From: Mobula hypostoma
Lineage: Eukaryota
Reading direction: 5' to 3'
Length of the DNA stretch: 64,000 bases
NCBI RefSeq assembly: GCF_963921235.1
Contig: NC_086097.1
Span: 142,726,001-142,790,000, forward strand
The notes beneath the pieces are model-generated. The model made no database searches, was not told the origin of the DNA, and saw only the letters and a program-made list of their open reading frames with translations. Positions 10,230 through 52,210 of this stretch are shown here, in pieces; positions within the stretch are counted from its first letter, which is position 1, and every line of letters begins with the position of its first letter. The position numbers were made by a program, and so were the translations under genes.

Positions 10230-10960
10230 GGGCGCTGTCTCTCATCTTTTCAGATACTGTGACAACTTAATTTTCTGCAGTCACACAGAATTTGAAGATT
10301 ACATCAGTTTTGCTAAAATTTCCACTTGGTTCTCACTTCCATATGGTTCAACTCAGAATCTTGCCCCTCTGCATCTCCATCTCAGGGAATGTTTGTTGTC
10401 TAGAATATATTACAATTCACCAACTGTATTGCTATCTTCACTGCAACTCCCCCATCTTGCCTCCAATCCATTTTCCCAGTGTTTCTGGCTCTGTCATATT
10501 TGTTCTGATGATTAGACTTTCAAGTGCTTCAGAGATGCTTTCCTTAATTGTGTCTCCCTTCCACCATTGCTCACAAGGTTCTCAGTCATTACCCACACTT
10601 CTGTTCCTTAGCTCTCTCCTCCCACTCCCATCTTATGCATTCAGAGAAACCTCCTCTAATTTCTGCCACCTTCAACACAACACCACAACCGGATGCATCG
10701 TCTCATCCCCTACCCTCCCAGCATTCCAAACTGACCATTCTGTCTGCGGCTAGTTCAGACTTCCTCCACCAACATTCTCCCTCTCATAGTAGCTTTGCGA
10801 GCAACTGCAGGAGATGCAACAATTCCCCCTTCACACCATCCAAACACTTCTTCCAGGTAAAGCAGTGGGACATTTGCATCTCTTTTCAATTTAGTACTCT
10901 GTATTTGGTGTTAATACAGTTGCAGAACACCTTTGGTCAAATTGAAAGTGTGACCCTGAG
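10230..10960 (+). mobile_element. Old Penelope-like element remnant
   Basis: LFRYCDN..SHTEFEDYISFA resembles the PLE RT RYxDD region. PLPAF..DHS and CRRCN-like pieces precede the GIY-YIG region. Confidence 0.55.
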
Positions 10961-10968
10961 TTTTCTAT

Positions 10969-11166
10969 AAACACAAGAGATTCTGCAGATGCTGGAAATT
11001 CAGATCAACACACACAAAATGCTGGAGGAACTCAGCAGGTTGGGCAGCATTTATGGAAAGGAATAACTAAATGATGTTTTGGGTTGATACCATAGGGGTC
11101 TATGACCCTATTCCTTTCCGTAGATGCTGCCTGACCTGCTGAGTTCATCCAGCATTTTAGGTGTTG
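10969..11166. mobile_element. Penelope terminal-repeat insertion (tail + inverted repeat)
   Basis: Tail aaacacaagagattctgcagatgctggaaat, then arms aaaatgctggaggaactcagcagg.. and ..cctgctgagttcatccagcatttt. Diverged TSD-like flanks gaccctgagttttct / gactttaagctttct. Confidence 0.8.
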
Positions 11167-11699: not shown

Positions 11700-11830
11700 C
11701 CCCACATACTTATTCTGGCTTCTTCCCCCTTCCTCTCCGGTCCTGATGAAGGTTCTTGGTCTGAAACGTCAACAGTTTATTCATTTCCACAGAAGCTGCC
11801 TGACCTGCTGAGTTCCTCCAGCATTTGGTA
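11700..11830 (+). mobile_element. Penelope terminal repeat with hammerhead core (helix I degenerate)
   Basis: gtc CTGATGA aggttcttggtct GAAA cgtc at 11740-11770, followed by gctgcctgacctgctgagttcctccagcattt. Confidence 0.75.
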
Positions 11831-12987: not shown

Positions 12988-13388
12988 GTGTAACACATAC
13001 AACAAGTTCCCCTGATTAGCTCCAAGTAACCTTTACTCTGCTCCATCCCAAAGCCAGTACAAACTTTCAGGGGAGACTGCTCAAACTGATATGTAAAGTT
13101 GTGCTCTTGTCAAATGCTTTGGAGCCTTAAGTTCATAATTCGAGCTGACAGTTCACAAGGCACCATTTCAGCAGAATACTGAAGGAGTGCTGCAATGTAG
13201 GGCAGCATTTAACAGAGGCTGGGACAGCCTTCGCCTGGTATCATGGCCAAGCTGTTCAAATGCAAAAACTGCTTATTTATATAGCCTGCAAATGTACTTA
13301 CATTAGAGGGACTGGAAGGCCACAATTTGTGTGGATCAGAAATAACATCTCCACTTCACTGATAATCAAAACCAGCTCAGCTCAAGGA

Positions 13389-13933
13389 ACAGGAATTCTG
13401 CAAATGCTGGAAATTCAAGCAACACACATCAAAGTTGCTGGTGAACGCAGCAGGCCAGGCAGCATCTCTAGGAAGAGGTACAGTCGACGTTTCAGGCCGA
13501 GACCCTTCGTCAGGACTAACTGAAGGAAGAGTTAGTAAGAGATTTGAAAGTGGGAGGGGGAGAGGGATATCCAAAATGATAGGAGAAGACAGGATGGGGA
13601 TGGATGGAGCCGAGAGCTGGACAGGTGATTGGCAAAGGGGATATGAGAGGATCATGGGACAGGAGGTCTGGGGAGAGAGACGGGGGGGGGGGAACCCAGA
13701 GGATGGGCAAGGGGTATAGTCAGAGGGACAGAGGGAGAAAAAGGAGAGTGAGAGAAAGAATGTGTGTATATAAATAAATAACGGATGGGATACGAGGGGG
13801 AGGTGGGGCATTAGTGGAAGTTAGAGAAGTCAATGTTCATGCCATCAGGTTGGAGGCTACCCAGACTGAATATAAAGTGTTGTTCCTCCAACCTGAGTGT
13901 GGCTTCATCTTTACAGTAGGGGAGGCCGTGGAT
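13389..13933 (-). mobile_element. Penelope-like element 3' fragment (GIY-YIG C-terminus + terminal repeat + tail)
   Basis: Minus translation IHGLPYCKDEATLRLEEQHFIFSLGSLQPDGMNIDFSNFH*. TSD TCAGCTCAAGGA (13377-13388, 13942-13953). Confidence 0.9.
13481..13518 (-). ncRNA. Minimal type-I hammerhead ribozyme
   Basis: Minus strand: AGTC-CTGACGA-AGGgtctcggCCT-GAAAC-GTC-GACT. Helix I AGUC/GACU, intact core, helix II AGG/CCU, palindromic ACGU in place of helix III, GUC cleavage triplet. Confidence 0.85.
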
Positions 13934-18049: not shown

Positions 18050-18310
18050 CAGAGGAGGAGGAGGAGGAGAAGAATGCTATAGTACTTTGAATATTTGAGG
18101 TGAATAACATGGATGCATTAAAAAGGATGCCGGCTGCAAGGTTCATTCTTACACCGCAAAAAAATGCAAGCTGAGCCAATCGCATTGAGTGACTAACTTT
18201 ATAAAACTCGCTGCATAAATATTAATTGGAAAATGAAATTACAATAGCTGGTGTTGATCAGGACTGAGATATGTTTAGAGTAATTAGTATGTTGCGAGAA
18301 CAGGAAATAA

Positions 18311-18418
18311 TTCACTTTGACAAGTAATGGCTTCCCATGGCAATGAACATGCAAATCAGGAATAAAGGCTGATCCTCATGTTCATTGCCATGGGAAGTTA
18401 TTACCCTGTTAAAGTGAA
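18311..18418. repeat. Long inverted repeat / hairpin
   Basis: CTTCCCATGGCAATGAACATG (18331-18351) is perfectly inverted at 18377-18397. The stem extends imperfectly to about 41 bp, with an inner stem ATCAG/CTGAT. Confidence 0.9.
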
Positions 18419-19032
18419 CATTTTCAGGTTAAAGTGGAAATAAGGGAGGCAAACAATTGCCGATACATTTCAGTTTCCAAACTATCCTCACTTACATATT
18501 ACTATTTTAAATTAATACAGTTATGATGGAAATTTGCAATGCAACAATACTATGCTTTATTTATACCATCCTATAAGTTTGAAGTCCTGCAGTGTCTCCC
18601 AGCAAGGAGGATGTAATTAATTAGATAACTTAGAAATTGGGAATTATACTGAATTGACAGGTTAATTAATTGGATTAATATCAGAAAATAATATACACCT
18701 ATTAACAAAATAAAATTCATGAGAATGCTGTTATATCGTCTTCATTTCAACCTAAATTAGTACCTCCTCAGACTTCAGTACTTAGAAGGATATTGCCATT
18801 TCTAGCCTGGTTCATGTCTGCATTCTCCAATGTCAACATGAGAGCTAGGTTTTAAAGTAAATTTATAGTCAATTAATACTCGTACAACTTTATAGAAATA
18901 ATTGCTGAAAAATATTTTCATATCATCTTCATATTGTATAGATTCCATAAACATGGAACATCCAATTTTGGATGCAGAACTGTGGAACATTTAATTAAAA
19001 GCATGAGTAATCACAGGAGTTGACTGTCTCAC

Positions 19033-21112: not shown

Positions 21113-24100
21113 TGTGTTGCCCTTAAGGCATTGTTGGGTCTTCGCTTTAAATTATTCGTTTGTAACTATTTTCTAGTTAAAGTTAAAGGTTGATAATTCA
21201 GTTACAGTATAACAAAAGTAAATTCATTGTTTATGGTATATCGCGGCATGTGATGAGGTCACCTCCGGTTTCGCCGCGTCTTATGTGTCACCTCCGGTTT
21301 GGAGAAGGTGTAAAGGTGGGTGCCATGCGTGCAGCATGATCGTGAAGAGCTCCGTGTCTACTCACAAAGGAACATTATAGAAGCAACGTCGTAAGTTCCT
21401 ATGAAAGTATTTGAAGTAAAAATATTAACGCGGTTTCTGTTAAGGAAGTGGCGGTTCGGGTGGCGCACGTGTGTCGGCTTTTCAATTTCACATGCAGGGT
21501 GGGTTCGAGCCTGGTGGCAGTTTGACAGGACTCCCCCCCCCCCCGCTACTCGGGGCGGCTGGAGACACTCGCTAAAAGAGAGCGCGCGTGGTCTCCAGAA
21601 TGAAACAGACGCTGTATGTTTGAATTTTCTTGTCAACAGTTTTCACCATACGATGTTAATGTGGAAAAGTGCATAGTAAATGGTTAACCTTACTACCACT
21701 CTGTCTTCACTGGCTCCGGTTTAACTTGGTGTTTAGTCAGAGTTTCAACATAGTGCACAAGAACACTACAGTGAAAATACGGTATCATTCGGTGTTTTGA
21801 CAAGTGGTACCATGGCTTCGCGATCAAGCACCAAGTCGCTTGCACTCAGCGCCAAGAGCAGTAGGACGTCGACAAGTGTGGCTGCCCTTGTAAGAGCTAA
21901 AGCAGAAGCCGCCAAGGTGCGAGCCTCATACGTAACCAAGAAGCAAGACTGAAAATGGAAAAAGCTGCCAGAGAAGTGGAAAAGCAGTTGGAAAAGGCAA
22001 GGATAGATACAGAGTTAGAGGTGCTGATGCTATGAGGAGCTGATGTGGCCGCGGTGGAAGCACAACTGTTGGAAAATGCTGAAAAAATGTACGTTCTCAA
22101 CAAAACAGGAAAATCTATGTCAGAAAGGACCAAATTGGAACGCATCAGTAAATATGTCCAATATCAAATTGACCTGCAGATTCATTCTCCCTCTCCATAT
22201 TTGCCTATTGGCGTCCCATCTTGTGAAATCACAGGGAAGCTTCGTTGCATCGCGTCCACCTGGGGAAGACAACTCACAATTGCAACCTTGCCACAAAGTC
22301 AAGTATGAAAGGGCTGACTACGAATACTTCCTGACACCAAACTTACCAGACCCGGCGAGATCAGAGACAAAGGCCGAAGTCAGAACATCAAATCTCATCA
22401 TGAACGTACACGCTCAGTCATATGTCCCCCAACATATTCCCCCAGCTAGCACGCCACCTGCAGCAGAACCCTTGACACAGTATTTAGCGCGACGAGACCT
22501 CGTCAACTCAAGACTGTACCAGTTTGACAATAAGCCTGAAAGTTACCATACATTGTACTCCTCATTCACCAGCGCCACCAGCGGAGTCTAGCTCACAGCA
22601 ATCCAAGCGTTGGACCTTATGACTAAATGGCTGGGAAAGGAATCAAGTGAACAGGTGAAACGCATACGCTCAGTGTACGTCAGCAACCCCAAGCTAGCCT
22701 TACACAACGCATGGGAGAGACTGTGGGAGTGCTATGTGGCCCCTGAAATTATTGAGATGGTGCTATTTCAACGGCTGGACAATTTTCCTAGGGTGTCAGC
22801 CAAGGACCACACTAAATTACGAGAACTCGGAGATTTACTCATGGAGATTCAAGGTGCTAAAGAAGATGGCTATTTAACTGGCCTGTCGTATCTGGATACC
22901 TCACATGGAGTTGGACCAACTGTGGACAAACTTCCATTTGAGCTGCAGGGAAGATGGGTGTCTATTGGCTCAGAGTACAAGGAAGAGAACGGTGGTCGGT
23001 TCCCTCCCTTTGAGTATTTTAGTAGGTTTGTGTGCAAGGAGGCGAAACGACCCTAGCTTCATGAATCAAGGCAGCACCACAACTCACACCAACCCAGTCA
23101 AACCCATTTTGAACAATTTTGTCATCAATAAACCCATCTCAGTGCATAAAACCGAAGTCTCCACAATCAACGATGCCCTAACAAGAATTGTCCATTGCAC
23201 AACAAACCCCACCCCCTCAAAAAATGCAGAATGTTTTGAAACAAACCCTTTGACGAAAGAAAGGCCCTTCTCAAGGAAAAAAGAATATGTTTTAAGTGCT
23301 GTTCCTCTACCTCCCACCTTGCTAAAGAGTGTACGTTCCTCATAAAGTGCTCGGAATGTAACATCACTAATCACGATGGAGCCATGCATCCTGGCCCGTC
23401 ACCGCAAACTGCCAAAGCTCCTCCACTCCCACAAGAGGATGGCGGGGAGGGAGAGCATCACTCTGATACAACTATTGTCAGCTCAAGCTGCACAGAAGTT
23501 TGCAGTCCAGGTCAGTCGAGCCATTTGTGCTCAAAGATCTGCTTCACTAAGATGTACCCTAAGGGAGTTAAAGACAAGGCCATCAAAGCCTATGTAATTC
23601 TGGACGACCAGAACAACCGCTCGCTACTGAGACCAGAGTTCTTCGAGTTGTTCAGCGTAAAGGGTAATCCATTCCCATACTACCTCAGAACTTGCTCTGG
23701 CATCGCAGAAACATATGGCAAGAAGGCAGAAAGCTTCCAGCTCGAGTCGCTGGATGGCAAAGTCGTCATCAGTCTCCCTCCACTCTTAGAGTGCAATGAG
23801 ATCTTAAATAACCGATCCGAGATTCCGACGCCAAGCACAGTGCTACACCAACCCCATCTCCACCACATTGCCAAGCACATCCCAGAACTGGATCTGGAAG
23901 CAGAAATACTCCTGCTACTCGGAAGAGATGTTCTTAGGGTGCACAAAGTCAGGCAGCAGGTCAATGGACCACACAACGCCCCCTTTGCCCAACGTCTGGA
24001 TCTGGGCTGGGTGGTGATAGGAGAGGTGTGCCCTGGCAACGTACACAAACCGACAGTTAAGACGCTCAAGACTAACGTGCTAGAGAGAGGCCACCATTCA

Positions 24101-24979
24101 ATTTCTCAGCCCTCCACAAGTGTTGCGTGTATCAAGAAAGCACAACAAAGAGCAGGCAGTCAACCGGTTCACATCTTTACAACGAACCCTGAAAAGGAAA
24201 CCTGAGACCAGTTACAGAGATTGTTCTACTCCACTTAAAGACTGATCTAGAGACTAAAGTTCTATACCATGTTATAGTGACCTTACAAAGGTCAGGCGGG
24301 GAGTGTGTTGCCCTTAAGGCATTTATTTGACTTTGTTGGGTCTATGCTTTAAATGATTTGTTTGTAACTATTTTCTAGTTAAAGTTAAAAGTTGATAATT
24401 AAGTTACAGTATAACAAAGGTAAATTCATTGTCTATGGTAGATCATGGTATGTGATGACGTCACCTCCGCTTTCGCTGTGTCTTATGGGTAACCTCCGGT
24501 TTGGGAAGGTGTAAAGGTGGGTGCCATGCGTGCAGCATGATCGTGAAGAGCTTCGTGTCTACCCACAAAGAAACATTATAGAAGCAATGCCGTAAGTTCC
24601 TATGAAAGTATTTGAAGTAAAAATATTAACGCAGTTCTGTTGAGGAAGCAGCGGTTTGGGTGGTGCACGTGTGTCGGCTTTTCAATTTCAAACGCGGGGT
24701 GGGTTCGAGCCCGGCGGCAGTTTGACAGGACACCTCCCCCCCCCCGCTCGCTACTCGAGGCGGCTGGAGACACTCGCTAAAAGAGAGCGCGCGTGGACTC
24801 CAGAATGAAACAGACGCTGTATGTTTGTATTTTTTTTTTAAATCAAAGTTTTCACCATATGATGTTAATGTGGAAGAGTGAACAGTAAATGATTAACCTT
24901 ACTACGACTCTGTCTTCATTGGCTCTGGTTCAACTTGGTGTTTAGTCAGAGTTTCAACACACTGCACGAGAACACTATA
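21113..24979 (+). mobile_element. BEL/Pao LTR retrotransposon, internally deleted
   Basis: LTRs 21113-21770 (TG..CA) and 24304-24979 (TG..TA). 5-bp TSD GTCAG (21108-21112, 24980-24984). PPT GGCGGGGAG before the 3' LTR. Confidence 0.95.
21812..24245 (+). pseudogene. BEL/Pao gag-protease pseudogene; RT/RNaseH/IN deleted
   Basis: Three Cys/His knuckles (CPLHNKPHPLKKC, CFKCCSSTSHLAKEC, CSECNITNH), protease AYVILDDQNNRS, LLLGRD and AQRLDLGWVVIG. Ends in the IN tail LRPVTEIVLL. Stops and frameshifts present. Confidence 0.9.
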
Positions 24980-35488: not shown

Positions 35489-36229
35489 TTGAAGCTGAAC
35501 ACAAATATAATTTCAGACTACTTGTATCACATAGGAATTTAGAGAAACAAGAAATTAACCTTTATTGAATATAATGTGTTTAGTTGCTTTAACAGTGCTG
35601 ACGCTTTGCCACGTAGTTCAACTAAGCTAAAAATGTTTTGTCCATTGTTTTCATTTGTACGCAGTGTCCTAGGGTTCTTGCTTAAGTGTCCAACAATAAT
35701 CAGCCAGCATTGATGGATTCCAGTTGCCCTGATACCATTTCTCCATGACTGCAATGTCCTGGTGAAGGCTTTCACCATGCCCGTCACTGACAGTGCCAAG
35801 ATTTGCGGGGAAGGTGTCTAAATGGAAATGCAGAAAATGTATCTTTAATGACATGTTGCACTTCATGGTTTCGTATGCTTGAAGCATGTTGTCAACCAGC
35901 TGCACGTAGCTTGGTGCTCTGTAGTTGCCAAGAAAATTTTCAACAATATCGTTGAACTTCATCCATGCCATTTTCGCCAGTCCCACAAGAAGTTCTTCAA
36001 ATTGCCTGTTGTTGATGACCTGTTTGATTTGTGGACCAACAAAAAATGCTTTCCTTAATCTTGGCATCAGTTATTTTGACTTGAATTATGAATTGAAATA
36101 ACAAATGCAGGTGATTTTTTAAAAAAGTGCGTGATAGGGAAATTTCATGGTGATTTTCATGAATAGTAGCCCAAAATCCATAACATACTCCCAGAAATAT
36201 TCAGGAAGCAAAATCTTTGTTGCCCAGTG
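35489..36229 (-). mobile_element. Chapaev3-like DNA transposon, internally deleted
   Basis: Minus strand begins CACTGGGCAACAAAG. Transposase C-terminus FVGPQI..FLGNYRA..CNMSLKIHFLHFHLD..LGTVSDGHGESLHQDI..YQG..MLADYCW. Family assignment is from memory. Confidence 0.7.
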
Positions 36230-36312
36230 TAGTTTCGCCACTTACAGTCATCATGAAATTGGATTCAATGAAAAATCTGATAAATCAGTTCTAGATTGCA
36301 GGAACTCTTTGC

Positions 36313-36775
36313 AAAACACACAAAATGCTGGAGGAACCCCGGAGGCCAGGCAGCATCTATGGAAAATGTACAGTCGACATTTTGAGCTAAAACCCTTTGG
36401 CAGGACTGGAGGAAAAAAGATGAGTCGATTTAAAAGGTGGGACAGGGGAAAGAAAAACAGAAAGTGACAGGTGAAACCAAGAGGAGGAAGGATGAAGTAA
36501 AGAGTTGGGAAGTTATTGGTGAAAGAGATACAGGGCTGGAGAAGGGAGGAGTCTGATAGGATAGGACAGAAGGCCATGGAAGAAAGAAAAGGGGGGGAGA
36601 GGGAGGAGCACCAAAGGGAGGTGATGGGCAGGCAAGGAGATAAAGTGATAGAGGGAAAAAGGGATGGGAAATGGTGAAGGCAGTTGGGGGGTGGGGGGGA
36701 CATTACCGGAAGTTCAAGAAATCAATGTTCACGTCATCACGTTGAAAGCTACCCAGACAAAATACAAGGTGTGTA
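36313..36775 (-). mobile_element. Penelope-like 3' fragment with degenerate hammerhead
   Basis: HLVFCLGSFQRDDVNIDFLNFR*. Terminal repeat with the core mutated (CTGCCAA..CAAAATGTC). Confidence 0.82.
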
Positions 36776-37531
36776 CCACCAGCGTAAGTCTTTGGCTTGT
36801 TCTGACTTGAGTCAAGTGGTATAGAATTTAAATCCCACTTTTGACAAATCTGGAAAGAGGAGGCTGCAGCTCTGGTGTTACAGTCTGGATTAATGTTCAG
36901 TGGAATACCAGAGTTCAATGGTTTGGGATGCTCTCACTCCTCAATGCTCCTGCCTTATGCAAGCTACTGTAAAGACTAAAAACATGGAAGCAGCAACTAA
37001 CTTGAGACCAGTCTGCTACTCTTGTTATCTCAAACTGATGAAATGAAACCATTTACACTGACAAATCATTTTTGGCTGCTTACACCATTACCTAGGAATA
37101 TCCAATCCTTGACATCAGCAATCCGACCCAATAGACACGGCAACTAAAGCAGGTTGACAAGATAATTTGATGAAACACCGTCTAATCAACTTCTGTGATT
37201 AATTTATATCCCATATATAGTTGAATCCAAGGAACATGTAATTATAAAAAAGGGGTAGTAAAAGGAAGTATCACACAAATGGAAAAAACTTAGCAACTCA
37301 ATGTAATTTTGCTAGATGTTAAAGCTGAGAAAATAACTAACCCAGTTGTCTCAAAAATTCCCAGTGTGTGCAGGCAATACACTGCTATATTTTCTCCACT
37401 GACATTAAAATTTAAAAACTCTATATAAACTAAATGAACACGTTCTGCTTCTCTTCCATTTGAGAGAATAGTTTCTGCCAGTAATCTGTTACTGTAGTGC
37501 TGAATGTACGTATCGAATGCTTTGTACTCAC

Positions 37532-37572
37532 AATCTTCGTGACTTGCACAGATTATTATTTAAAATTTATCC
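37532..37572 (-). other. Candidate 41-nt exon with stops in all three frames
   Basis: Acceptor tgctttcttgtgatatag| and donor TT|gtgagt. Confidence 0.4.
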
Positions 37573-38742
37573 CTATATCACAAGAAAGCATTAAATAGGT
37601 GGAATGTCAATGACAGTTTTGCTAGACATTAAATGGAAGCCCCATTTCTTCCTGGTGATAAAGGTCACAGTAGGATGCAGAATACTGGATAGTTTGAGGA
37701 AAAACTAGAGCAACCACAAGAAAGAAAGTTTTCAGTCAGTCAGGAAAGAAGCAGACAACTTCAGATCAAAGACTATGTTCTAGAAAGATGTTTATTTCAG
37801 ATCCTTAGCATCTGATTTAATTTGCTTTGCAAAAACCAGCTTCAGGAAAAGGCATCAGATGGTTTTAAGTCTGTAACTGCTTTTCTTAGTGACTAACAGA
37901 GGAGCCTTAGGTCCTACACCACCAGTTCAGTTACAGTGGTTACCCCTCAACCATCAGGCTCTTGAACCAGAGTGGATAACTTCACTCAGCCCAACAATGA
38001 ACTGATTCCATAACCTACAGTATGGACTCACTTTCAACCTATGTACTCACATTCAAGGACTCTACAACATATGATCTCAATATTTATTACTTATTTGATA
38101 TTATTGCTTTTTTTCCCTTTTTTGTGTTTGCATGTTTGTTGTCTTTTATACATAGGTTGTTTCTCAATCTTTGTTATGTGCAGTTTTTCATTCATTCTAT
38201 AGTGTTTTTTGTACTTACTGTGAATGCCCACAAAAAATTAATCTCATGGTAGTACATGGTAACATATACGTACTTTGAAAATAAACTTACTTTGAACTTT
38301 GAGAAGCAAATCCTTCTTTACTTGTTGGCCTGTCTACAAATTTAGTCCCATATGACAGTAACGCACAGGACAGACCCTTTTTCTTGTACACAATTTGTAT
38401 CCCTCCATTCATGAGTCTAACTAAAGCCTTCTTAAATGCCAATGCTTCCACCACTACCTCTGGCAACTCACTCTCTGTACAAAAACTTGTCATGGTCACC
38501 TCCCCTCTTACTTTAAAAGCATGTATTTTAGTATTTGATATTTCTACCCTGGGAAATAGATTCTGACTGTCTACGCCTCTCACAATTTTATAAATATTGA
38601 TCAGGTTTCCCTTCATTCTCCAACACTCCAAAGAAAACTACCTGAGTTTGTCCAACTTCTTATAGCCCATACCCGCTAATCCAGGCAGCATCTTAGTTAA
38701 CTTCTGTACCCTCTCCAAAGCCTCCACATCCCTCTGGCAATG

Positions 38743-39246
38743 CACACACCAGCTGTGTGGCAAAAAAAAGCACAACAGCGTCCCTTCCATTTCAGGCAAC
38801 TGAAGAAGTTCGGCATGAGTCCCCAAATCCTCAAGAACTTCTACAGGGGCACCATTGAGAGCACTCTGACTGGCTGTATCACTGCCTGGTACGGGAACTG
38901 CACCAATCTTGATCGCTGTGCACCGCGGAGAGTGGTACAGACAGCCCAGCGCATCTGTGGATGTGAACTTCCCTCCACTGAGGACATTTACAGCAGCGGG
39001 TGCATAAATGAGGCCTGGAAGATCATCAAGGACACCAATCACCACAACCATAAACTGTTTCAGTTGCTTCTGTCTGGCAAATGGTACCGCAGTATTCAAG
39101 CCAAGACTAACAGGCTATGGGACAGCTTCTTTCTATAAGCCATTAGACTTATAAATTCATATGTCTGTACATTGTGACAGAGTCGTAATGCAAAGATTTT
39201 TACTCCCTCACGTTGTGGGATGGATGTAAGATTTAAATAAATTCAA
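38743..39246 (+). mobile_element. Rex1-type LINE 3' fragment
   Basis: KKAQQR..LKKFGMSPQILKNFYRGTIES..DSFF. Confidence 0.88.
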
Positions 39247-39304
39247 ATGCGGTGACCAGAACTGTACACAATACTCAAAGTGAAGCCTAACCAAAGTCTT
39301 AGAC

Positions 39305-39495
39305 CAGGGGTCAGCAACCTTTTTGCCTCTGTGGGCCGGATCACGTATTAATGAGCGGATGGTGGGCCAGATAAATGCCATAAAAAACTCGAAATATGGG
39401 AATTATCCATTTAAATAAATCTAGTTATGTTTTGCCTCAAATTAATGAATAACACATGCTAGAAAATCATTTGTGCTGAAGGTTGCCTACCACTG
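39305..39495. mobile_element. hAT MITE (191 bp)
   Basis: TIRs CAGGGGTCAGCAACCT / AGGTTGCCTACCACTG; 8-bp TSD TCTTAGAC on both sides. Confidence 0.92.
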
Positions 39496-40372
39496 TCTTA
39501 GACAGTTGCAACATGGTTTCCTTACTCTTATATTCAATGTCTTGGCTGATGGTGCAAATCATGTTATTATGATTTCTTTACAACCCCACCTACCCTTGTG
39601 GGACTACTGACTCTATCCCTCTATATATCAAAGTAAGTCCCATACATTTAGGATTAACTACTCTTGTGGAGTTATTTATCAAGCCACTAAATTATACAAA
39701 AACACTAAAGTCAACATGAAGAAGCACCTTCACGACATAGTGTTTGTCTTATTCTTAGGGATCTGCAGTGATACACATGTTCATAAAGTTAAAGTCCAAA
39801 AGATTCCCCTGCATTGTTCAAAGGAGGGAAGAAAATCCTTCCGATTCTAACCTGTGCTAAAAAACGGTGAGACCCCTAATCAATTATGCTCAAAAAAGTC
39901 TAACTGGTCATTCACCTCATTGTGTGATCTTACTGTGTGGAAATTACTGACTATGAAAAGCTGGCTTGATTTTAACATGATACACAAATTCTCAATAGGC
40001 TAGTGTGCAGGAAAGTTTAACAGAATGTTATTGTTTATTTCTCAAGAAACTGATTACAAAGGTAGGAAGATTACACTACAATTAGAGAGTACTGTTAAAT
40101 TCACACCCAGAGTATTGTGTGCAGTATTGATCCTATTTAAGGATGTTAAGGCATTGAAAACATTCACAGATTTGTTAATCTGGAATGGGTGGGTTGAATT
40201 TTGAAGGAAAATTAAACAGGTTTAGTTGGCCTTCAGAATTGTGGGAAGCCACCACATTAGACCCAGAGGTGGATGTGGTGATGATGTTTTCTCTTGGGGG
40301 TGGGGGAGGGGGGAGGTGAATCAACAACTAAGGAGTCACTGTTAAAGGTAAGAGCATCACCCACTTAAAGCA

Positions 40373-40561
40373 AACAATAGGAATTCTGCAGATGCTGGAA
40401 ATTCAAGCAACACACATAAAAGTTGCTGGTGAATGCAGCAGGCCAGGCAGCATCTCTAGGAAGAGGTGCAGTCGACGTTTCTCGGCCTGAAACGTCGACT
40501 GCACCGCTTCCTAGAGATGCTGCCTGGCCTGCTGCGTTCACCAGCAACTTTTATGTGTGTT
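40373..40561. mobile_element. Penelope terminal-repeat palindromic insertion
   Basis: 36-nt tail plus 73-bp inverted arms (40409-40481 / 40489-40561, 2 mismatches). 14-bp TSD ACCCACTTAAAGCA. Sits in an old CR1 fragment. Confidence 0.93.
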
Positions 40562-42342
40562 ACCCACTTAAAGCAGATGTGCCAAAATTATTTCTCTCAG
40601 AGTTGTCAATACTTGTATCTCCTTCCCCAGGAGTAGGGTGGAAGCAAAGTCTTTGAATATTTTGAGGCAGAGGTAGATGGGTCCTTGATAAGCAAGGGGT
40701 GAAGGTTACCAGAGATAAGCAGGAATGTGGAGCTGGGGTACAATAAGATCAGTTGCAATCTTATTAAATGCTGCTGCAAGCTTGAGCGGCTGATTAACCT
40801 TTAACTTTTTCTAATTTGCATGCAAGCATGTATTTGTACATGTTTTTTATACCACATTAGGACATCCTTGGTATTGTTTACTGCTGGCTGTGCTTAACAG
40901 AATGATGATGATGTTTAACTACCCACAGAATCTGAACACCTCCCTTAATTACTCCTACTTCTGACTAATTGTACTACATAGTTCCCACCTTTTTTAAGAA
41001 TCAGAAAGTTGAATATTGAGGGTCTGTTCTAGGGAGTAGACCATATGCAGATCACTGCACTCTGGTGCAGTGGGAGCAGTATACTCCTAGAAGTACTATA
41101 CTTTAAAATATAAAATATAAGGAGGCATAGTAAGCTGAAACAGTTGGACGAGGAGTGGACTCCCTGCTTTCTTCCCATCATCACTTTCATAGCTTTGATC
41201 ATTCACATCACTGCTGTCTATGAAACCTCAATAGCAAAAGCTGGCTGTTGTTTCCAATACTACAATAATGACCATACATCAAAATTCTTATTGGATTCTT
41301 ATTCCAGTGTATTTATAATGTACAAATTCTTTATTTCCACCACACCGGAACCCAAGCCCACACATTGACAACTGCCAAACATGAGTGACGTGACAAACAC
41401 AACTCAGTATCTTTATGTTTATTCATTAATGAGACATGGCCACTGCTAGTAATGGTAGCAATTTGGCATTAAGGTGGTGGTACTGGGTTACCTTCAACTA
41501 CTACAGTCCAAGTATATGTTCTACGGGTGTACTGTTATATAAAAAGTAGCTGAAGAAATGCTGAGAAATTTACAGGCCACAATGATATATGGCCTAGAGG
41601 GCAACCTGCAGCTGTGTCCCCATCAAATTATTTCCGTGTGCACAGAATGGCTGTAGCCAGTGTCGCCATCCATTCTATTTTTTTCTAAAATGCTGCTTTG
41701 ATGTCAGAATCAGATCAGACACTCCCAACTCACCTTCGAATTTCAGCCCTGCTGTCTGTCCATCTTTGGATAAAGATTGCATTGCGGCTTGGAGGCAAGT
41801 GGTCCAGGTGGAGACCAAAGAGAGGTTTGGTGAACGAGTTACGGGTTTAGGAACAATTTAAGAGCACTAACATTGACATCTCCCATCATAATGCTGGTAA
41901 TTCAGAGAAGAGCAGTTGTATAGTAACTCCACAGCTTGGACTTGTCTTGCTTTCTATGGACAGGTCACATATGGCCAATTTTCACATTTCTGGGTAATAA
42001 GCTGTTACAGCCAACACGCAGATAGTGTGCCAGAATGTCTTTATAAGTACAGCCAGGTTGCTGAAGCTTAAACGTTTGGGCTATTTCTTGATATTATACA
42101 CCACGAGTGGCTTTGACGATGGTGGGGATGTCAGTAGATGATCAGCCACTCAGCATTTCTGGGGGACCACAGCTGCAAAAATTTCAACACTGTCTTTTAC
42201 AGTCAAGTGTAAGACTCCACCATCTTTGAGGCGAGAATGCTGAAGGATCCTCCTCCTTCCATTAACTGTTATACCGCTCCACTGGCATTCATGGCTGGAT
42301 GTGGCAGAAGTGCAGGATTGCTGAACTGCTGTCGTGGGATCA

Positions 42343-42475
42343 TAAACACAAGAGATTCTGCAGATGCTGGAAATCCAGAGTAACACACACAAAATGCTGG
42401 AGGAACTCAGCAGGTCAGGCAGCATCTAAAGAGAGGATTAAAGAACCGACGTTTCAGGCTGAGACCCTTCATCAG
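42343..42475 (-). mobile_element. Penelope terminal-repeat insertion beginning at the hammerhead core
   Basis: Minus: CTGATGA AGGgtctcagCCT GAAACGTC...tail. 13-bp TSD TGTC(G/A)TGGGATCA. Confidence 0.88.
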
Positions 42476-42810
42476 TGTCATGGGATCACTTAACACTCTA
42501 TAAAGCACTGTATCTGGTGTTTTCAAGGATGCTGCTGATTATTGCTACTTTACAAGCAATGCTTAACTTAAGTACATCTGATGGTAGATTTTGCTATAGT
42601 CATTTACACAGTATTGTTGATTCCTTGGCTTGATGACAATGGCATAAAAGGAAACACCGGGCCATGGAGTAGTGGATCTTGGTGGCATACAGATCTACGG
42701 CTGCTGATAGCCCATAATGTAACATGAATATGCAGCTTTGAGCTGACTGACATGTTCTAATGTTATTGCATTTAGCACCAGGGCGCTGCCACTCTTTGCC
42801 TCCAGACGGT

Positions 42811-43602
42811 AGGAAACTTTGTCACATGGTGTGAGCAGAATTATCTGCAGCTTAATGTGAAAAAGACTAAGGAGCTGATGGTAGACCTGAGGAGAGCTAA
42901 GGTACCGGTGACCCCTGTTTCCATCCAGGGGGTCAGTGTGGACATGGTGGAGGATTACAAATACCCAGGGATACGAATTGACAATAAACTGGACTGGTCA
43001 AAGAACAGTGAGGCTGTCGACAAGAAGGGTCAGAGCCGTCTCTATTTCCTGAGGAAAATGAGGTCCTTTAACATCTGCCGGACAATGCTGAGGATGTTCT
43101 ACGAGTCTGTGGTGGCCAGTGCTATCATGTTTGCTATCAGTGTGCTGGGGCAGCAGGCTGAGGGAGGCAGACACCAACAGAATCAACAAACTCATTTGCA
43201 AGGCCAGTGATGTTGTAGGGATGGAACTGGACTCTCTCATGGTGGTGTCTGAAAAGAGGATGCTGTCTAAGTTGCATGCCACCTTGGTCAATGTCTCCCA
43301 TCCACTACATAATGACTGGGTGGGCACAGGAGTACATTCAGCCAGAGACTCATTCCACTGAGATGCAGCCCTGAGCGTCATAGGAAGTCATTCCCGCCTG
43401 TGGCCATCAAACTTTACAACTCCTCCCTTGGAGGGTCAGACATCCTGAGCCAATAGGCTGGTCCCGGATTTATTTCATAATTTACTGGCATAATTTACAT
43501 ATTACTATTTAACTATTTATGGTTCTATTACTATTTATTACTTATGGAGCAACTGTAACGAAAACCAATTTCCCCCGGGATTAATAAAGTATGACTATGA
43601 CA
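42811..43602 (+). mobile_element. Rex1-type LINE 3' fragment
   Basis: LNVKKTKELMVDLRR..KKGQSRLYFLR; tail aataaagtatgactatgac. Confidence 0.9.
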
Positions 43603-45818
43603 AACCTTGCAGTGATCGCTCCTAACAAATCTGTTACAACAGATGAATCTACGATAAATAGATTGAGCCAGACAGATTGATGAGGAGAAGGACAAGTAGG
43701 ATTTTACCCCTTGTGTTGGTTCTTTAACCACCTGCCCAACCCCAATTTGCACTTTTCACTTTGTCTCTTTCCCAAAGATAACCTCAGTGACTCCTGTAGG
43801 GAATGAGGAGAGAGAAAAAAGACAACTTGTGTTTATCTCATCACCATCATTCCTCTGTTATGTCCATCTCATACAAGTTATTTGCCTAGACATAATCTGT
43901 CCATTTCTGCAGTGGAGAATTCACTATTACGTAGAAAGATACAATGACTGACCAGGTACCAAATGCTAACAGGGAAACATCACTGATGTGACCAGTATTT
44001 GATGCTTAGTTAATTTTCCTGTGTGTGGTAGATCATTTCAGAGGCGATTTGATAAACATAATGACCACTCGTTCTGATGTTACGTCTGAATTTTAAAAAA
44101 CTTGGTTCAAATTCTCAAACCGCCACAGCAGTATCTGAACTCTAGAGACTCTATACTTCTAGTGCAGTAAATTAACTGTCCTGAAAACCGGGCTATGTAT
44201 TTGAGTGCACAGATAGCACCTCATTTTAGATAAGATGTTAACCTATGATGCCTATGACAGTGTAGCACTTCCCTAGAGCTGTACTTGTCAGCCCAGACTG
44301 CATCCTTGACTAAGGCTTAAATTTGCAAACTACAACTCACTTAATATAATTTTAACAAAACAAAGGCAGTTATTTATTTATTGAGATGCAGCTCGTAGCC
44401 ATGTAGCCCTGCAATCCAGCAATTTAATGCTAGACTAATTACAGGACAATTTACAATGACCAATTAACCTACCGACTGCATGTCTTTGGTCTGTGGAGGA
44501 AAATGGAGCACCTGGCGGAAACCCACGTGGTTATGGGGAGAACGTACAAACTCCTTACAGGCAGTTATACTGGAAATTGCAGAACTTATTAGATACATTC
44601 TTAGATACAGAAAACTTGGTAGTTTTCCACAAATTTCATGACTTTCAGAGGCAGCTCAGGTCAAAAGCATCTTTATTACAGAATGGTATTTTTTTGGGAA
44701 AAAAAAACTCAAGGAATTCAAAAACTAGATAGAAACTATTTCCTCTAGAAAAAGAGGTATAATCTTACAAATAGGTTAAGCTCTTCACAAGTAAGTCCAT
44801 GCAAGAAAAAAAAATTGGAATTCTTCTTCCTCAGAAAGTTTCAATTAAAATTCTTGAACTTTGAGATCGATAATATTTTGCTGGGCAAGGATATGGATCA
44901 AAGTTGATTACACAGAGGAGGTATAAATTTGAACAGAACAGGTCTGAGTTACCAAATCTACTTCTTTTAAATTATCTGTTAAACACTGAACTATATTGAA
45001 TTACAGCTCTGTCAATAGGGATTAAACCAATTAAAATTAGCATTTGGGATATGGAGGATGCTGACAAGTTTAGCATGCATTTCCCACTCCTGGTGCCAAG
45101 GTGGTCATGCATCCTCTCAGATAGGATGGAGATACATACCAGTCAGGCTGCAATGGAAAGATGGAATAGGCCAGAGGAGCTGACTGAACTATTCCCCTTC
45201 CTACAAAAGATCAGTGTTATTTCTGACCTCTAAATATAACTGACCACTTCATATTCTAAACAGATGATGTACCACAAGTACTACACCTAAGGGACAGAGC
45301 CAGCTATGTATCCACAACATTTCAACTGCAGAACACTATCAGGTACCAAATGTATGTCAGCTCTCACAGCGTCACAATTATAATGCAGAAGATGCAGTAC
45401 ATTAGGTTCTGCATCTCTGATAACTTTGGGTAGGTGGAGCCTTTGTAGTAGGAACATTAGACTGCTTGGTTTTAATAGTCCCAGATTTGCATGAGTGAAG
45501 TGGAAGAAAATAAATTAACAAACTTAAAGACTCCCATTCTTGGATCATGATCCTATGAAAAATTTGCTCGTGTGGATGTTGGATGAGGACAGGAATGGCT
45601 GCACCCCAGAAAGCTCCTACAGTAGAATTGTCTATCAATACTCTCTAATCTTTCAAATGAAAAATGGATATCAACATTCAATTCTGCATTATCACTCTAG
45701 GCTATCTGCCCCTTGTCAAGTTGCTTCTGATGTGCTCAAGAGTGAAGCACTTGAGAATTCTTACTTTCTTCTTCTTACTTTTTAATTTACATTATTTTTT
45801 GTATTTTTTTTCTCACCG

Positions 45819-46538
45819 TAACACGTCAAAGCTGCACCCTCTCGAACATGCTGGTAGAGAGTTTTATTTGGGTCTTTTTTAGTGCTGGAAATAAGATACA
45901 CCCCGACACGCGGGACAGAAGCAAGGTCGCATTGTGTATTCCAGAAACCAGCTAATGCCGGCTGGTTTAGCGAGCAGAGTAGCGGACACCCCTGCTGAAA
46001 TCCAGAGGAAAACACACAGAGCATGCAGAGGGGGATCACAAAGTCGAGGAAAGAGGACCGGGTCGAGACAACAGAGACTTTTGGAGAAGAGGAGTTCAGT
46101 GGGTAATACTGTTCCAGCTGACCGGAAGTGCACTGACAGCGGTAAGCATAAAGGAGTTGGGTGCTTACTGATCTGGTTAACAATGAATGGTGCAATCCGG
46201 GGCATATTACGATTGAGGAATGCGTTTGCAGACTGGATATTGAACTTTTTACTGTTGGACTTCGGCCACATTTCACTGTGATACAACACTTGGTGGCATG
46301 GGAGGTCATTCCTGCCTGTGGCCATCGAACGTGCAGCTCCTCCCTTGGAGGGTCAGACACTCTGAGCCAATAGACTGGTCCTGGACTTATTTTCCATCTG
46401 GCATAGTTTGCATTTTGTTGTTTGATTGTTGGTGGTTTTGTATTGCTATATTTACGCTCTATTCTTGGTTGGTGCGGCTGTAACGAAACTAAATTTCCCT
46501 TGGGATTAATAAAGTATGTCTATCTATCTAGCTATCTA
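45819..46538 (+). mobile_element. Internally deleted Rex1-type LINE (5' end fused to 3' end)
   Basis: 5' part: RACRGGS, ADRKCTDSGKHKG..WCNPGHITIEECVC..DIELFTVGLRP (endonuclease-like). It joins at ~46280 to a 3' end matching the 43380-43600 type, with a (TATC)n tail. Confidence 0.75.
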
Positions 46539-46859
46539 ATTCCCATTGCCAACAGAAATAAAGATGTTTAACAAAGTCAACTTCGTGGGGATTTCACTTC
46601 AAGTAAATGAATGGGATTTCAATCTGAAAACCACAAATATACAAGGCAAGTGAAAATACTAACTCAAATTAAAGTACTTATGATGCTATTTTGAAGAGGG
46701 AAATATTCTAGAAAATAATTTTTACCTCAACCAGAATCACAAAACACAGTTCAGTTAGTCAATTGGAAACACACAGACTGAACGTGTTGTAATCTTGAGG
46801 AAAAAGTAAAACTGCTGGAGCATCTCAGTAGGTCAGGCAACACCTGTCCAAATGGGAAT

Positions 46860-48495
46860 GATTGATGTTAGACTGACACCCCCTGGTCTGATGCCCTGTG
46901 ATTTCAGTCTCTAAGGCCAATGTGAGAGCATTCTTCAGGAGGGTGAATCCATGGAAAGCATCTAGCCTCTACGGCACATCTGGCTAAGTACAGCAGACTC
47001 GTGCTAATCACCTGGCTGGAGTGCTTATGGACATCTTCAAACTTTTGCTTCAGCATTGAGGTACCCAGCTGCTTCAAGCAGGCTTCAATCATACTGGTGT
47101 CCAAGGGGGAAAAAACATGGTAATCTGCCTCAATAACCATCATGCAGCAGCAATTACATCTTTGAGAGGCTGGTCTTGAAGCATATCAACTCCTGCTTGA
47201 GGAGTCACCTGGATCCACTCCAATTTGCCTACTGTCACAACAGGTCAACATCTATTGCCATTTCACAGGCTCTTCACTCAGCTCTGGAACACATGGACTG
47301 TGAAGATGCATGCATTAAGATGTTCTTCATTGAGTACACTGCAGCTCAGCATTAACACTATCATCCCCTCGAAACTAACCAATGAACCCTAAGACCTGGA
47401 TCTCTATATCTCCCTGTGCACTGGATTCACGAGTTCCTGACTTGTAGACCTCATTCAGTACAGACAGGCAACAACATCTCCTCCACAATTATTATTTGCA
47501 TGGGTGCACCACAAGGCTGTATGCATAGCCCCTGCTCTACTCGCTTTATACATATGACTGTGTGGCTAAGTACAGCTCCAATGCCATATTTAAATTTGCT
47601 GATGACCCTCCTCTTATTGGCTGAATCAAAAGTGATGATGAATCAGCACATAGGGAGGGAGATTGAAAATCTGGATGAATGATGTCACAGCAACAACCTG
47701 TCACTCAATGTCAGCAAAACCAAAGAGCTGATTATTGACTACAGGAGGAAAAAGGCACAGGTCCATGAGTCAGTCCTCAATCTAGTGAATCAGAGGTGGA
47801 GAGGCTCAACAACTTTAAATTCCTCGGTGTTACCATATCAGAGGATCTGTCCTGGGACCAGCATGTAAATGCCATCACAAAGAAGGCATGACAGCACCGC
47901 TACTTTCTTAGACATTTGCATAGATTTGGCATGTTATCTAACACGCTGACCAACTTCTATAGATACACAATGCAGTCCTGACTGGTTGCGTCACAGCCTG
48001 GTATGGGAACACCAGTGCCCAGGGATGGAGAATTCTACAGACAGTGATCACAGGCAAAGCCCTCCCTACCACTGAGCACATTTACAAGGAATGCTGCCGT
48101 AAGAAAACAGCAACCAGCATGAAGACCCCATCAGCCAAGCCACACTCTCTTCACTACTAGCATCAAGAGGACGTACAGGAGCCTTAGGTCCCACATCACC
48201 ACGTTCAGCAACAGTTTTTACCCATCAGGCTGTTGAACAAGCTTGGATAACTTCACTCTCCTCAACTCTGAACTGATTCCACAACCTACAGGCTCACATT
48301 CAAAGACTCTACGATATATGTTCTCGTATAAATTTATTTTTTATTTGCGTAATTTATCTTCTTTTGCACGTTGGTTGTTTGTCACTCTCTATGTAATTTT
48401 TCATAAATTATGTCTTTATTTTATGCAAATGTCAGCAGGAAAATGAATCTCAAGGTAGTATATGATGATATATACATACTTTGATAATAAATTTA
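46860..48495 (+). mobile_element. Rex1-type LINE, decayed
   Basis: [19 protein letters not shown] and NNLSLNVSKTKELI pieces; tail tttgataataaa. Confidence 0.88.
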
Positions 48496-48499
48496 TGTC

Positions 48500-48600
48500 A
48501 CCAGACCTGATAAAGGATCTTGTTCTGAAACAGTGACTGCCTATTTATTTCCATAGATGCTGCCTGACCTTCCGAGTTCTTCCAGCGTTTTGTGTGTGTT
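48500..48600 (+). mobile_element. Degenerate Penelope terminal repeat without tail
   Basis: cctgataaaggatcttgttctgaaacagtgactg...ccagcgttttgtgtgtgtt. Confidence 0.7.
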
Positions 48601-49649
48601 ACATAAATGTTGTCTCATTTACCTTTTCTCCTCAGGGGATCTCCTTCACTTCCCAACAGGTTCCAGATGACCACAGGATAACATGGTTTAGTGAATGGCA
48701 GAAGTCAAACTGGCAAACCTCAAAAAATTTGATTCCAGTTCTTGACTCGAGCCAAAAGGCAACTGACCCGAATGTCATTCAACAGAAAAAAAAACAAACG
48801 GCAGTGATTTAGGAAATAACTCAACTGGCGCTTCTGCACCATTTTGTTTAATCATGTGGAAATCACCAACAAGGCTGGCACTTACTGCCCCCCCCCCTTT
48901 TATGGGGGTGGCAGGCTGCTTCCTTGAGCAACTGCAATCCATGTTTGCAGTAACTGATACAACTAAATGGCTGCAGAGAACATTTAAGAGTTGGATGGGA
49001 TTGGAGTCAAATATGGGTCAAAACTGATATCCTTTGGGAAAGAAGCTTTCCACTGGTTACCATCCAACTGTGTAATAGACAAACCAGTAACGTTATATGT
49101 TTTATTTCTGGGATGTATAAAACAAATGAAAGTCTTTAACTCACAAATTATTAGTTCAAACTTCAGAGTTGGTAATCTGGTAACAAAGATGGGCTTATGG
49201 TTTCTGGTCCCTCCTTTTTTTGGCTGCTTTGAATCAAACGGCTTGCAAATAATGAGCACCTAGCTGAACTGAATAAGCCCGGTCCTTTTCGATTTTTTGT
49301 TTTATATTCAGCATTTTTTTGGCTCTTTTTTTTTGCCGCTGTTTGCGCAATGCTTTTTTGCGTGGGGGGATGTTTGATGGTTTTCTTTGTTTCATGGCTG
49401 TCCGTGGGAAACACAATCTCAGGGTTGTATACTGCATATATACTTTGATAATAAATGTACTTCGAATCTTTGAAGATACAACTTCATCAATAATCAATAC
49501 TAGGCTACTAGAGATGAAAATGGCAAGCTTGGAGGCGCAGAAAAGGATTAGATGAGCATTAAACTTAGCTGGGTTACTCTTTATGGTACAATAATCACCA
49601 TCTTAGCTCACACATTAATGGTAAAAAGATACTGTGGGAAGTCTATTCA

Positions 49650-50025
49650 GTCTGTAGTCCCATCATTTAGTTGAGGCATTAAACTAAATCTCTCTCAGGT
49701 GGTTGCAAAAGATCCTTTTTCAAGCAGAAGTTCATTACCCAGGTCAATAGTTTTCTTTAAAACAATCAAAAATAGATGCAAACAACAGGAATTCTGCAGA
49801 TGCTGGAAATTCAAGCAACACACATAAAAGTTGCTGCGTTCACCAGCAACTATTATGTGTGTTAATCAAAAATAGATTATTTGTTTATTTATTTCAGTGT
49901 TGCGAAAATTTGATGTGTGCAAATTACCTGCCGCATTACCTTATGATATAACCATAATTAAATCTTGAAACTAATATGTATGAAGTACTTTAGTGAGGGA
50001 GTACACTATATAAATTCACGTTTGT
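49650..50025 (+). mobile_element. Ancient Deu-domain SINE (SacSINE1/AmnSINE-like); further copies at ~13100, 20320, 26960, 61340 and 62110
   Basis: ctctcaggtggttgcaaaagatcc..agattatttgttt..tgtgtgcaaattacctgccgc..gaagtacttt..ctatataaat matches the remembered Deu-SINE layout. Confidence 0.6.
49778..49863. mobile_element. Minimal (86 bp) Penelope tail + palindrome insertion
   Basis: Tail plus aacacacataaaagttgctg / cagcaactattatgtgtgtt arms; 14-bp TSD AATCAAAAATAGAT. Confidence 0.9.
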
Positions 50026-51339
50026 TTGTTCAGAACTAAACTAAGTCGTGCTGATTTGAATACAAATTCTATGCAAGTTGAACAGCAAGGTAAAGTACTA
50101 CAAACAATATAAATTGAAAAGCAAAAAAAAACTTTGCATGTGCTAAAAATCTAGACTGGGGTGAGCAGCATTTTAAGGAGTTATTTTGAAAAAAGTAAGT
50201 CAATCCTTCTGGTGTACTCCCCTCACCACCTCTGCTTAGGTATAATGAAGGGTTTTCACCAGCAACACAAACTCACCTAAAAAGAGATTTAAATACTTAC
50301 TATTTCCAAAATATTCCACAGTTTCTTATTTTAAAATTATGCAGTGTCAAAAGCTAGTCAGAATAAAATGTGTATGAAGGACTTCCTCCTGCTGACAGTG
50401 GAGGTTAAATAAGGGCTCTATTCTTATTTGAATAATGTTTCAATACTAAGAAAGTAAAATTCTTCCTGTTGCACATGTGCAGATTTAGGGAGAGATTTAG
50501 TTGATTTGTAAGAGCAGGATGTGTAAAAGAAAAAAAACCATTGCTTGTTACAAAATTCATGATTATTATTTTCTTTGATGGCTGTAAGAATTTGTGATAA
50601 CAGCTTTAAGTGACTCAAGATGGCATCCAACTGTCTTCGTGGGTAGTGATGGTCACTGTGTATTTGTTATTTTTTGGTCTGACTGTTGCTCAGTCTGCTC
50701 TGTGTTACTCGTGCTTGTCCCACTATGTTCAATGAGATGGAGACAGTTGCCGATTGTTTTATACCAAACATCAGCACTTTGCCAAGTAAAACGAAGCCTC
50801 CTGAATGTAGTCTCCACTAGCCCTTCCCTGTAAATCTAATCTTCCCACAATTCTCCTTCTTTCTGCACTACCGTCCAATTAATCTAACCAAGACTGCTCT
50901 TATCACCCTTCAAAATACCGTACCTACCATCCCCCTAAAAAAGCCAGGTGTCGCAAGATTCGCCACCCACCCATTAGAATTACGCGAGCACCGTGGATTT
51001 TAGGCCTACTACCATCTCTCCCCAAAGCTATCTCGTGTGCGTCTGTGTTTTTATTCTCCTCTTTTTAAAGTTTACCCACCATTTACTTTACCTTCGAGCC
51101 ACACAAAGGGTGAAATAGTTTTAATCAAAATAGGGGTGGAGGGAATTAAAACACGAGGAAGAATGACCATCACGGGGGCCTGGGCTCCAGTCATTTTTGG
51201 ACCTTATGCCGAAGCACTGGTTCCATCTAATTTCTTTACTTTTTGCACTGTTACCTCAAGCCACATTTTATTTTTTATATTAAGCTTCACTGAAAACGAA
51301 TCAGATGACAATTAAATAAAATTATGTGATAAGAATAAA

Positions 51340-52210
51340 GAGATATTTCGGTTACTTACTCGGTCGGGTGCTCTGGGTCATAAGCGTCCCCCATCTTCAC
51401 CGAGCGGCGCTATTTTACTCAAAACATTCAGCATGAAAAACGAAAAAAAATAAAACAACGAGGGCAAAAAAAAAACCTCCAACGATTTTCTGAGCCGGCG
51501 TGTAAATTTCTTCTCCACCTTTGGAAGGTTCAGACTTCTGCTCCGGGACTGACAACTCGACGTTCCGAAATTAGGATCCCGGCGCCTGCGACGTTCCAAA
51601 ATCGAACCTTTTTGTATCAATTCTCCCTTCCGATCCGATAAAAATGTTGTCCTTCAGTTTTATTCCATGCTCGCTGCCGCTCCGCCGCCCGCCGCCGGCC
51701 GCCGGCCTCCTTATGGAATCCACACTCGAACTCCCTCTTTCTAAAACATCCTTCCCATATTTAAATATATATTGTACCTTGTGTGTGTATATACACATAT
51801 AAAAAACACCAGGCACGAGATCTATTTAATCCCCGCTTCGCCTCTGCAAAACAAAATGAATGCGAAAAAATTCTTCCATCAGAAAACAATGTACTTTTTT
51901 ATATTTATAGCCATTTTAATTTGTCTTCTTTCTTTCTGGTTCCCCTTTTGCTTTAAGCACACATTATATTTGTGTGTGTTTGTATTTTTTCAACCTCGAG
52001 AAAGAACACTAGGACGATGTACGTCGCTCCGTAACAAACGGAAATGAACCGAGAACAGTTTTTTTCGATGCGACTGGGACTTTCCTGTGAAATTGACAGT
52101 CATCCGGGCCAACTGAAAGTGTCGAGCCAGTTTATGAAACTGACTGCCATAAGAGATATTTTATTATGTTTCGTTTGTGAGGAGCTGCTGCTGAAACTGA
52201 TCAGGTTTGT
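51340..52210. promoter_or_regulatory. CpG island / probable bidirectional promoter
   Basis: The only long CpG-rich, TE-free stretch in the window. (GCC)n-like tract at 51673-51705. Outward-facing splice donors at 51359 (minus) and 52205 (plus). Confidence 0.8.
51360..51394 (-). CDS. First-exon ORF start (MGDAYDPEHPT, phase 2) of an unidentified gene; CDS start or uORF
   Basis: Kozak-compatible aagATGG, then donor GA|gtaagt at the edge of the CpG island. Confidence 0.6.

Follow-up and report, generated by a model that had tools for sequence, protein, structure and literature searches.

A short head-to-head insertion with a one-sided tail that matches the integration pattern of Penelope-like elements

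Neptune and Nematis, two types of Penelope-like element (PLE), share, by definition, a C-terminal GIY-YIG that is preceded by a CX2-5CxxC linker motif (PMC8557442). The protein of an anole PLE nicks and extends both strands of its target and initiates at two internal sites, one on each side of the tail; it has been modelled as a dimer, and its template is uncleaved, unprocessed RNA (PMC11167929). That in-vitro work concerns a Poseidon element rather than a Neptune element, and it does not show double priming at one site. Minimal hammerheads are known from the Xena, Poseidon and Neptune elements of fish, and in Schistosoma hammerhead motif pairs lie on opposite strands, 100–700 bp apart (PMC4209133). 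Non-LTR retrozymes are recognised by a tandem arrangement in which every unit has a complete type-I hammerhead (10.64898/2026.07.22.740005). Here we describe a 189-bp insert from a ray genome and compare it with these systems. The window referred to below is the whole 64-kb stretch of DNA that was analysed.

Anatomy of the insert and its parent element

The insert occupies 40373–40561 and consists of a 36-nt tail followed by inverted 73-bp arms with a 7-nt loop, TCGGCCT, between them. The arms (40409–40481 and 40489–40561) match at 71 of 73 positions. An exact 14-bp direct repeat, ACCCACTTAAAGCA, lies at 40359–40372 and 40562–40575 and constitutes a target-site duplication (TSD); this 14-mer occurs twice in the whole window, both times flanking the insert. 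The dimensions given in the initial annotation for insert, TSD, tail, arms and loop were all reproduced on re-measurement, while its description of a perfect palindrome was too strong, arm identity being 97% and not 100%. The parts of the insert are as follows.

40359–40372, no strand: left TSD copy, 14 bp; the last 3 nt fit the tail terminus; present as a single copy in the organism D empty site
40373–40408, minus strand: PLE tail, 36 nt (39 if GCA is counted); putative outer reverse-transcription start; loose-end peaks at 40370 and 40372
40409–40481, minus strand: left arm, made of 73 nt from the PLE 3′ end; breaks off just beyond the hammerhead GAAAC
40480–40481, no strand: 2-nt microhomology, TC, common to both arms at the junction
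40482–40488, plus strand: 7-nt templated loop; helix II loop and 3′ strand, part of the tailless arm
40489–40561, plus strand: right, tailless arm; ends in GTGTGTT, the putative inner start site; loose-end peak at 40561
40562–40575, no strand: right TSD copy, an exact repeat of the left copy

The last three TSD bases, GCA, are also the terminus of the element tail, as seen in the 39-nt tail of the copy at 49778. Because GCA fits the TSD and the tail terminus alike, the insert is best parsed as a tail of 36–39 nt with a TSD of 11–14 bp, and the left primer may have matched the template over 3 nt. The letters also confirmed that both arms carry GAAACGTC-GACT and that CTGANGA is absent from both. 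The last letters of the left arm are GAAAC, which brings it to the base of helix II, and the right arm extends across the helix II loop and 3′ strand. The loop itself is sense-strand element sequence that extends the tailless arm, and where the two arms join they share TC, a 2-nt overlap. On the right arm the predicted hammerhead cut falls between 40496 and 40497, within the arm. We ruled out the ribozyme cut site as the turning point of this insert, as the arms pass the cut by 8 and 15–17 nt. Because both arms continue past the predicted cut, the template RNA would have been uncleaved.

The longest copy of the same subfamily (13389–13938, minus strand) contains a 41-aa C-terminus, a 3′ region, a minimal hammerhead core, the 73-nt segment and the tail. 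Since hammerhead, 73-nt segment and tail follow the GIY-YIG C-terminus in this copy, both ends of the insert are outward-facing element 3′ ends. The same copy bears out the earlier description of the repeat as hammerhead-bearing, as it joins the same end to the GIY-YIG C-terminus and to an intact minimal hammerhead core. Ray proteins have C-termini that match its 41-aa peptide with as much as 90% identity (best E 2e-14). The four ray homologues examined possess YIDD, a CX4CXXC linker (CKRNKCYTC or CKWNKCYTC in 4/4) and a GIY-YIG-like core with internal cysteines (GIY..C..C..YIG), and the Pfam GIY-YIG model matched three of six ray proteins at E 5e-4 to 2e-3, weaker than the curated cut-off. 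By the linker and GIY-YIG definitions of PMC8557442, the parent whose 3′ ends form both insert arms would be a Neptune- or Nematis-type PLE. No intact PLE ORF or full-length copy was found in the 64-kb window.

The hammerhead core motif occurs at 13513–13486, 42475–42448 and 11743–11770, with helices I and II predicted to fold; a search of Rfam at gathering thresholds gave no matches. A pattern scan of viral contigs (8 loci) and metagenome contigs (30 loci) yielded no usable copies, with 0/38 aligned over more than 44 nt. Three ray proteins, P0002, P0007 and P0008 (annotated as VKORC1L1, neuromedin-U receptor 1 and ABHD14A isoforms), include the PLE C-terminal peptide, which would reflect either exonisation or gene-model error.

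The PLE 3′-end repeat was found at 11 loci in the window. Three of the 11 are head-to-head, and in all three the tail is on one arm only. Tail lengths in the five window copies measured were 36, 39, 32, 38 and 38 nt. The copies that bear on the insert are listed here.

49764–49877, no strand: sibling head-to-head insertion of the same subfamily; exact 14-bp TSD, 39-nt tail, 20-nt arms, 5-nt microhomology
13374–13953, minus strand: longest same-subfamily copy; insert 13389–13938 (550 bp), 15-bp TSD with 1 mismatch, 32-nt tail, core at 13513–13486
10969–11165, no strand: head-to-head copy from the older subfamily; 38-nt tail, 56-nt arms matching at 88%, without a clear TSD
42330–42488, minus strand: older-subfamily single-arm copy with tail; 13-bp TSD (1 mismatch)
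48503–48602, plus strand: older-subfamily single-arm copy, tailless, placed by repeat alignment

The sibling at 49764–49877 has a 7-nt templated loop that again continues the tailless arm. The tailless end GTGTGTT recurs at 49863 and 48600, as first reported, although the older 48.5-kb copy may be up to 2 nt longer (its alignment reaches 48602). The 5′ end of the single-arm copy at 42343–42475 is exactly the first base of CTGATGA. A decayed PLE RT-to-endonuclease remnant with stops and frameshifts (10150–10960, plus strand) ends just before the head-to-head copy at 10969. An unrelated, MITE-like imperfect inverted repeat lies at 18299–18430, with an 86% match in its 36-nt core, 77% over arms of about 60 nt, and a 9-nt loop; no TSD was found around it. 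Long, broken gag/protease-like frames with Cys-rich motifs occupy 22028–24205 on the plus strand; we take them to be, probably, the remnant of a BEL/Pao-type LTR element.

Empty site, age and host context

Logan contigs from four runs were compared with positions 39700–41300. In organism B, from another study, one contig spans the left junction to 40396 and another spans the right junction from 40538. In organism D, a 1446-bp contig aligns to 39707–40358 and then to 40562–41087, at consecutive contig positions 902/903. The target is present once at this empty site, which is 203 bp shorter. On the simplest reading of these alignments, the insertion would postdate the split from organism D, the alternative being a precise loss between direct repeats in D.

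Flank divergence was 1.5% to organism B and 4.2% to organism D, or 0.75% and 2.1% per lineage. The per-arm decay of 1.4%, from 2 mismatches (95% interval 0.17–4.95%), lies between the per-lineage flank values for B and D, and the two arm mismatches would fit neutral decay from identical arms.

A CpG-rich segment at 51251–52000 (observed/expected reaches 1.45; median 0.26) contains a candidate 11-codon first exon, MGDAYDPEHPT, with its minus-strand ATG at 51394 and a GTAAGT donor at 51359, directed toward lower coordinates. If this candidate, some 11 kb away, is real, the insert would lie within a host intron, a placement that is only suggested. Two crude splice-site scans, and Pfam on 16 of the candidate frames (0 matches), identified no later host exon. 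A 58-codon frame at 48636–48812 (plus strand) follows a good polypyrimidine/AG acceptor and adjoins the 48.5-kb copy; a homologue search of this frame returned 0 matches among 2 candidates. The predicted hairpin energy of the insert is about −150 kcal/mol as RNA and −95 as DNA.

Outer ends, centres and the route of integration

Loose ends that run into unique flank were counted at the insert boundaries. Run X1 gave 117 contigs at 40370, 102 at 40372 and 287 at 40561, and run X5 gave 126, 94 and 276, these counts being drawn from the six rows listed per run, of 850 rows in all. The pile-ups at recurrent positions among the rows listed agree with the earlier proposal that the ends are fixed and not random across copies. 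Loose ends at 40561 are mixed, as some contigs run on into tail letters and the consensus starts with tail letters at an agreement of 0.43, and the row at 40379 is a variant of the first tail letters. Three run X1 contigs carry a joint from 40561 to 40370 that links the tailless end to the tail start (‘goes back 192’), possibly reflecting nested or tail-to-tail insertions.

Among the best-supported 15 of 158 joints, 14 are of the fold-back type and these fall at 14 different position pairs, which argues against a turn tied to helix II. The initial annotation placed the fold-back inside helix II, and this holds for the 189-bp insert but not as a fixed link, since the 49.8-kb sibling turns about 50 nt nearer the end. 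A hot spot at helix II was considered from the 189-bp insert, probably the 10.97-kb copy, and several joints with 85–89-nt arms. It was set aside, as arms longer than the reference collapse onto 40480 and the joints listed are 15 of 158 and 12 of 137.

Both breaks lie within the reference arms in nine usable joints; of the 15 listed, four that join at 40480, another with 40 letters in between and a further one of a different joint type were set aside. Overlaps of 2–5 nt were present in seven of these nine, against 15% expected over 8181 position pairs; the p-value of 5e-5 for this excess is not an unbiased test, because the joints were tool-selected (15 of 158) and five were removed before counting. 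Five further joints with templated extensions, among 12 of 137 listed, had overlaps of 2, 3, 2, 3 and 0 nt. As the rows are tool-selected, they convey variety and tendency, not frequencies. The two young window copies have junction overlaps of 2 and 5 nt.

The insert is probably the product of a single integration of a Neptune-type PLE: the two target nicks would each have primed a cDNA, with one start at either end of the tail, and the centre would have been closed at a short inverted word. The TSD and empty site show that the cut was staggered and duplicated 14 bp, and the GIY-YIG endonuclease would have nicked both target strands 14 nt apart. Each free 3′ end would then have primed reverse transcription on uncleaved element RNA, one at the outer tail end and the other at the inner tailless site; two priming sites are proposed because the insert has an element 3′ end on either side, each at a recurrent position. 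Priming of its own cDNA at each nick is made plausible by the activities of the anole PLE protein in PMC11167929. Both cDNAs would have stopped early. The centre would have been sealed at the 2-nt inverted word, where the overlap is observed and the chemistry is presumed: either the two cDNA ends would have annealed, or the longer, tailless cDNA would have folded back and been captured by the tailed one. The product would be a dead hairpin, neutrally decaying and devoid of a working hammerhead. More tentatively, and with somewhat less than even confidence, the micro-palindromes as a class may be in-vivo footprints of asymmetric double target-primed reverse transcription (TPRT): a dimeric PLE particle would use both nicks, one subunit always at the tail end and the other at the tailless site, with short inverted words serving to close the centre, either through DNA fold-back or through annealing. 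A literature search, largely outside subscription papers and Repbase, found no paper on PLE double priming or on this ray PLE family.

Self-priming before integration is the main competing route, and we regard it as unlikely. Here an antisense transcript or free cDNA would fold at a short palindrome and be copied into a hairpin, which the endonuclease would then integrate and trim, leaving a one-sided tail. Such self-priming has been put forward for PLE head-to-head junctions (PMC3846280), with the tail ascribed to endonuclease-mediated resolution (PMC8557442). Short loops are frequent among the joints listed (7, 7, 0, 5, 6, 10, 13 and 14 nt), which speaks for such self-priming on an antisense template. 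Both arms also share the same variants relative to the long copy, at arm positions 10 and 60, and given this sharing and the 7-nt loops in both young copies, a single-strand fold-back fits equally well. However, longer loops (19, 33 and 41 nt) exist too, as do arms that differ by at least 60 nt, and a fold-back of 2 bp is poorly suited to priming. The loop lies on the tailless strand in both young copies, so the tail would need to have been removed from the priming strand, and the two insert ends match the kind of two start sites that were mapped biochemically in PMC11167929.

The remaining explanations carry far less weight. A non-autonomous hairpin family, MITE-like or retrozyme-like and itself transcribed and re-mobilised as a unit, would account for a small, non-coding insert with near-perfect arms and a TSD, and non-autonomous elements derived from PLEs exist (PMC8557442; 10.64898/2026.07.22.740005). 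It is nonetheless very improbable, as the centre differs in each head-to-head copy (3/3 in the window; 14/14 fold-back joints listed), the hammerhead core is incomplete on either arm, and a transcript of the whole unit would have an antisense tail at one end. A MITE has the same internal structure in each copy and symmetric ends; here the ends are asymmetric owing to the tail, and the centres all differ among the copies seen. Retrozyme identity was rejected, the insert being inverted and not tandem, CTGANGA gone from both arms, and TRF finding 0 arrays in 36000–52000. The notion of a distinct tiny unit is not supported: there is no sign of self-propagation, and the head-to-head structures look like independent dead-on-arrival products. 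It is equally improbable that a regulatory hairpin was retained, as intronic dsRNA edited or diced to silence the PLE family or to tune a host gene. The predicted RNA fold (−146.5 kcal/mol on the minus strand, −151.8 on the plus strand), the retention in two species and the candidate minus-strand first exon upstream are in keeping with this, but arm decay is in line with neutral rates and the hairpin is missing from organism D. An assembly fold-back artefact, finally, would agree with the centre of the hairpin being bridged by no contig among the 31 pieces listed (102,897 more), yet both outward-facing junctions are present in a second species from another study, a third species has the exact empty site, and the TSD is exact while the arms differ at 2 sites. 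The annotation had named such an artefact as a risk, and with these junctions and this empty site it can be practically dismissed.

As a single locus, a dead scrap on a published pattern, the insert has little weight; its contribution is that one relative has the empty site and another shares the junctions. Being short, the inserts show their two ends, their junction and the empty site without ambiguity. As a class, micro-inserts can test how PLEs form head-to-head copies, may act as presence/absence markers between related rays, and are a possible source of intronic dsRNA. If the double-TPRT reading is true, the many datable ray copies would decide between it and the published self-priming model, a long-open step of PLE integration.

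Comparison with described systems

In L1 twin priming, the second primer pairs with an internal stretch of the same RNA, and the two halves therefore differ in sequence. The 189-bp insert is unlike this, as both halves are the same 3′ end. The proposed route does resemble twin priming, the subject of PMC2837659, in its two primers from two nicks, an inverted junction with microhomology, and one TSD.

The hammerhead in the 13389 copy is like the metazoan minimal type-I hammerheads of PMC4209133, with CUGANGA and GAAA, one additional base ahead of helix II and a helix III that is nearly absent. The 189-bp insert differs from the hammerheads described there in carrying the 3′ half of the motif only, on each arm.

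The Poseidon element of Anolis carolinensis, PAc (PMC11167929), is like the ray PLE in having a hammerhead upstream of the tail and two start sites bounding it, and like the proposed route in that both strands are nicked and extended on an uncleaved RNA template. Unlike PAc, the ray PLE has a Neptune/Nematis-type linker Zn-finger, and its target words are not ATT. The left primer end of the insert has a 3-nt template match, whereas PAc starts without homology in vitro (PMC11167929). We found no model of an inverted product in PMC11167929.

The insert is also like the head-to-head insertions of EN+ PLEs, as described for Pen2a_Av of Adineta vaga (PMC3846280, PMC8557442), which also have an adjoining inverted 5′-truncated copy, a one-sided tail (30–40 bp), a single TSD round the whole and a short overlap at the inverted junction. 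Of the EN+ PLE criteria, a GIY-YIG parent, a one-sided tail, an inverted 5′-truncated copy within one TSD and a predicted minimal hammerhead were all found. The ray insert departs from Pen2a_Av in that neither half reaches 120 nt and nothing of an ORF remains, in its TSD of 14 bp against 8–10 bp in A. vaga (PMC3846280, PMC8557442), and in having an empty site visible in a related species. The inverted copy plus tail, initially taken as a signature of Penelope-like integration, matches the published PLE pattern in PMC8557442 and PMC3846280. The 189-bp insert is thus a clean, small example of that described pattern and not a new kind of element.
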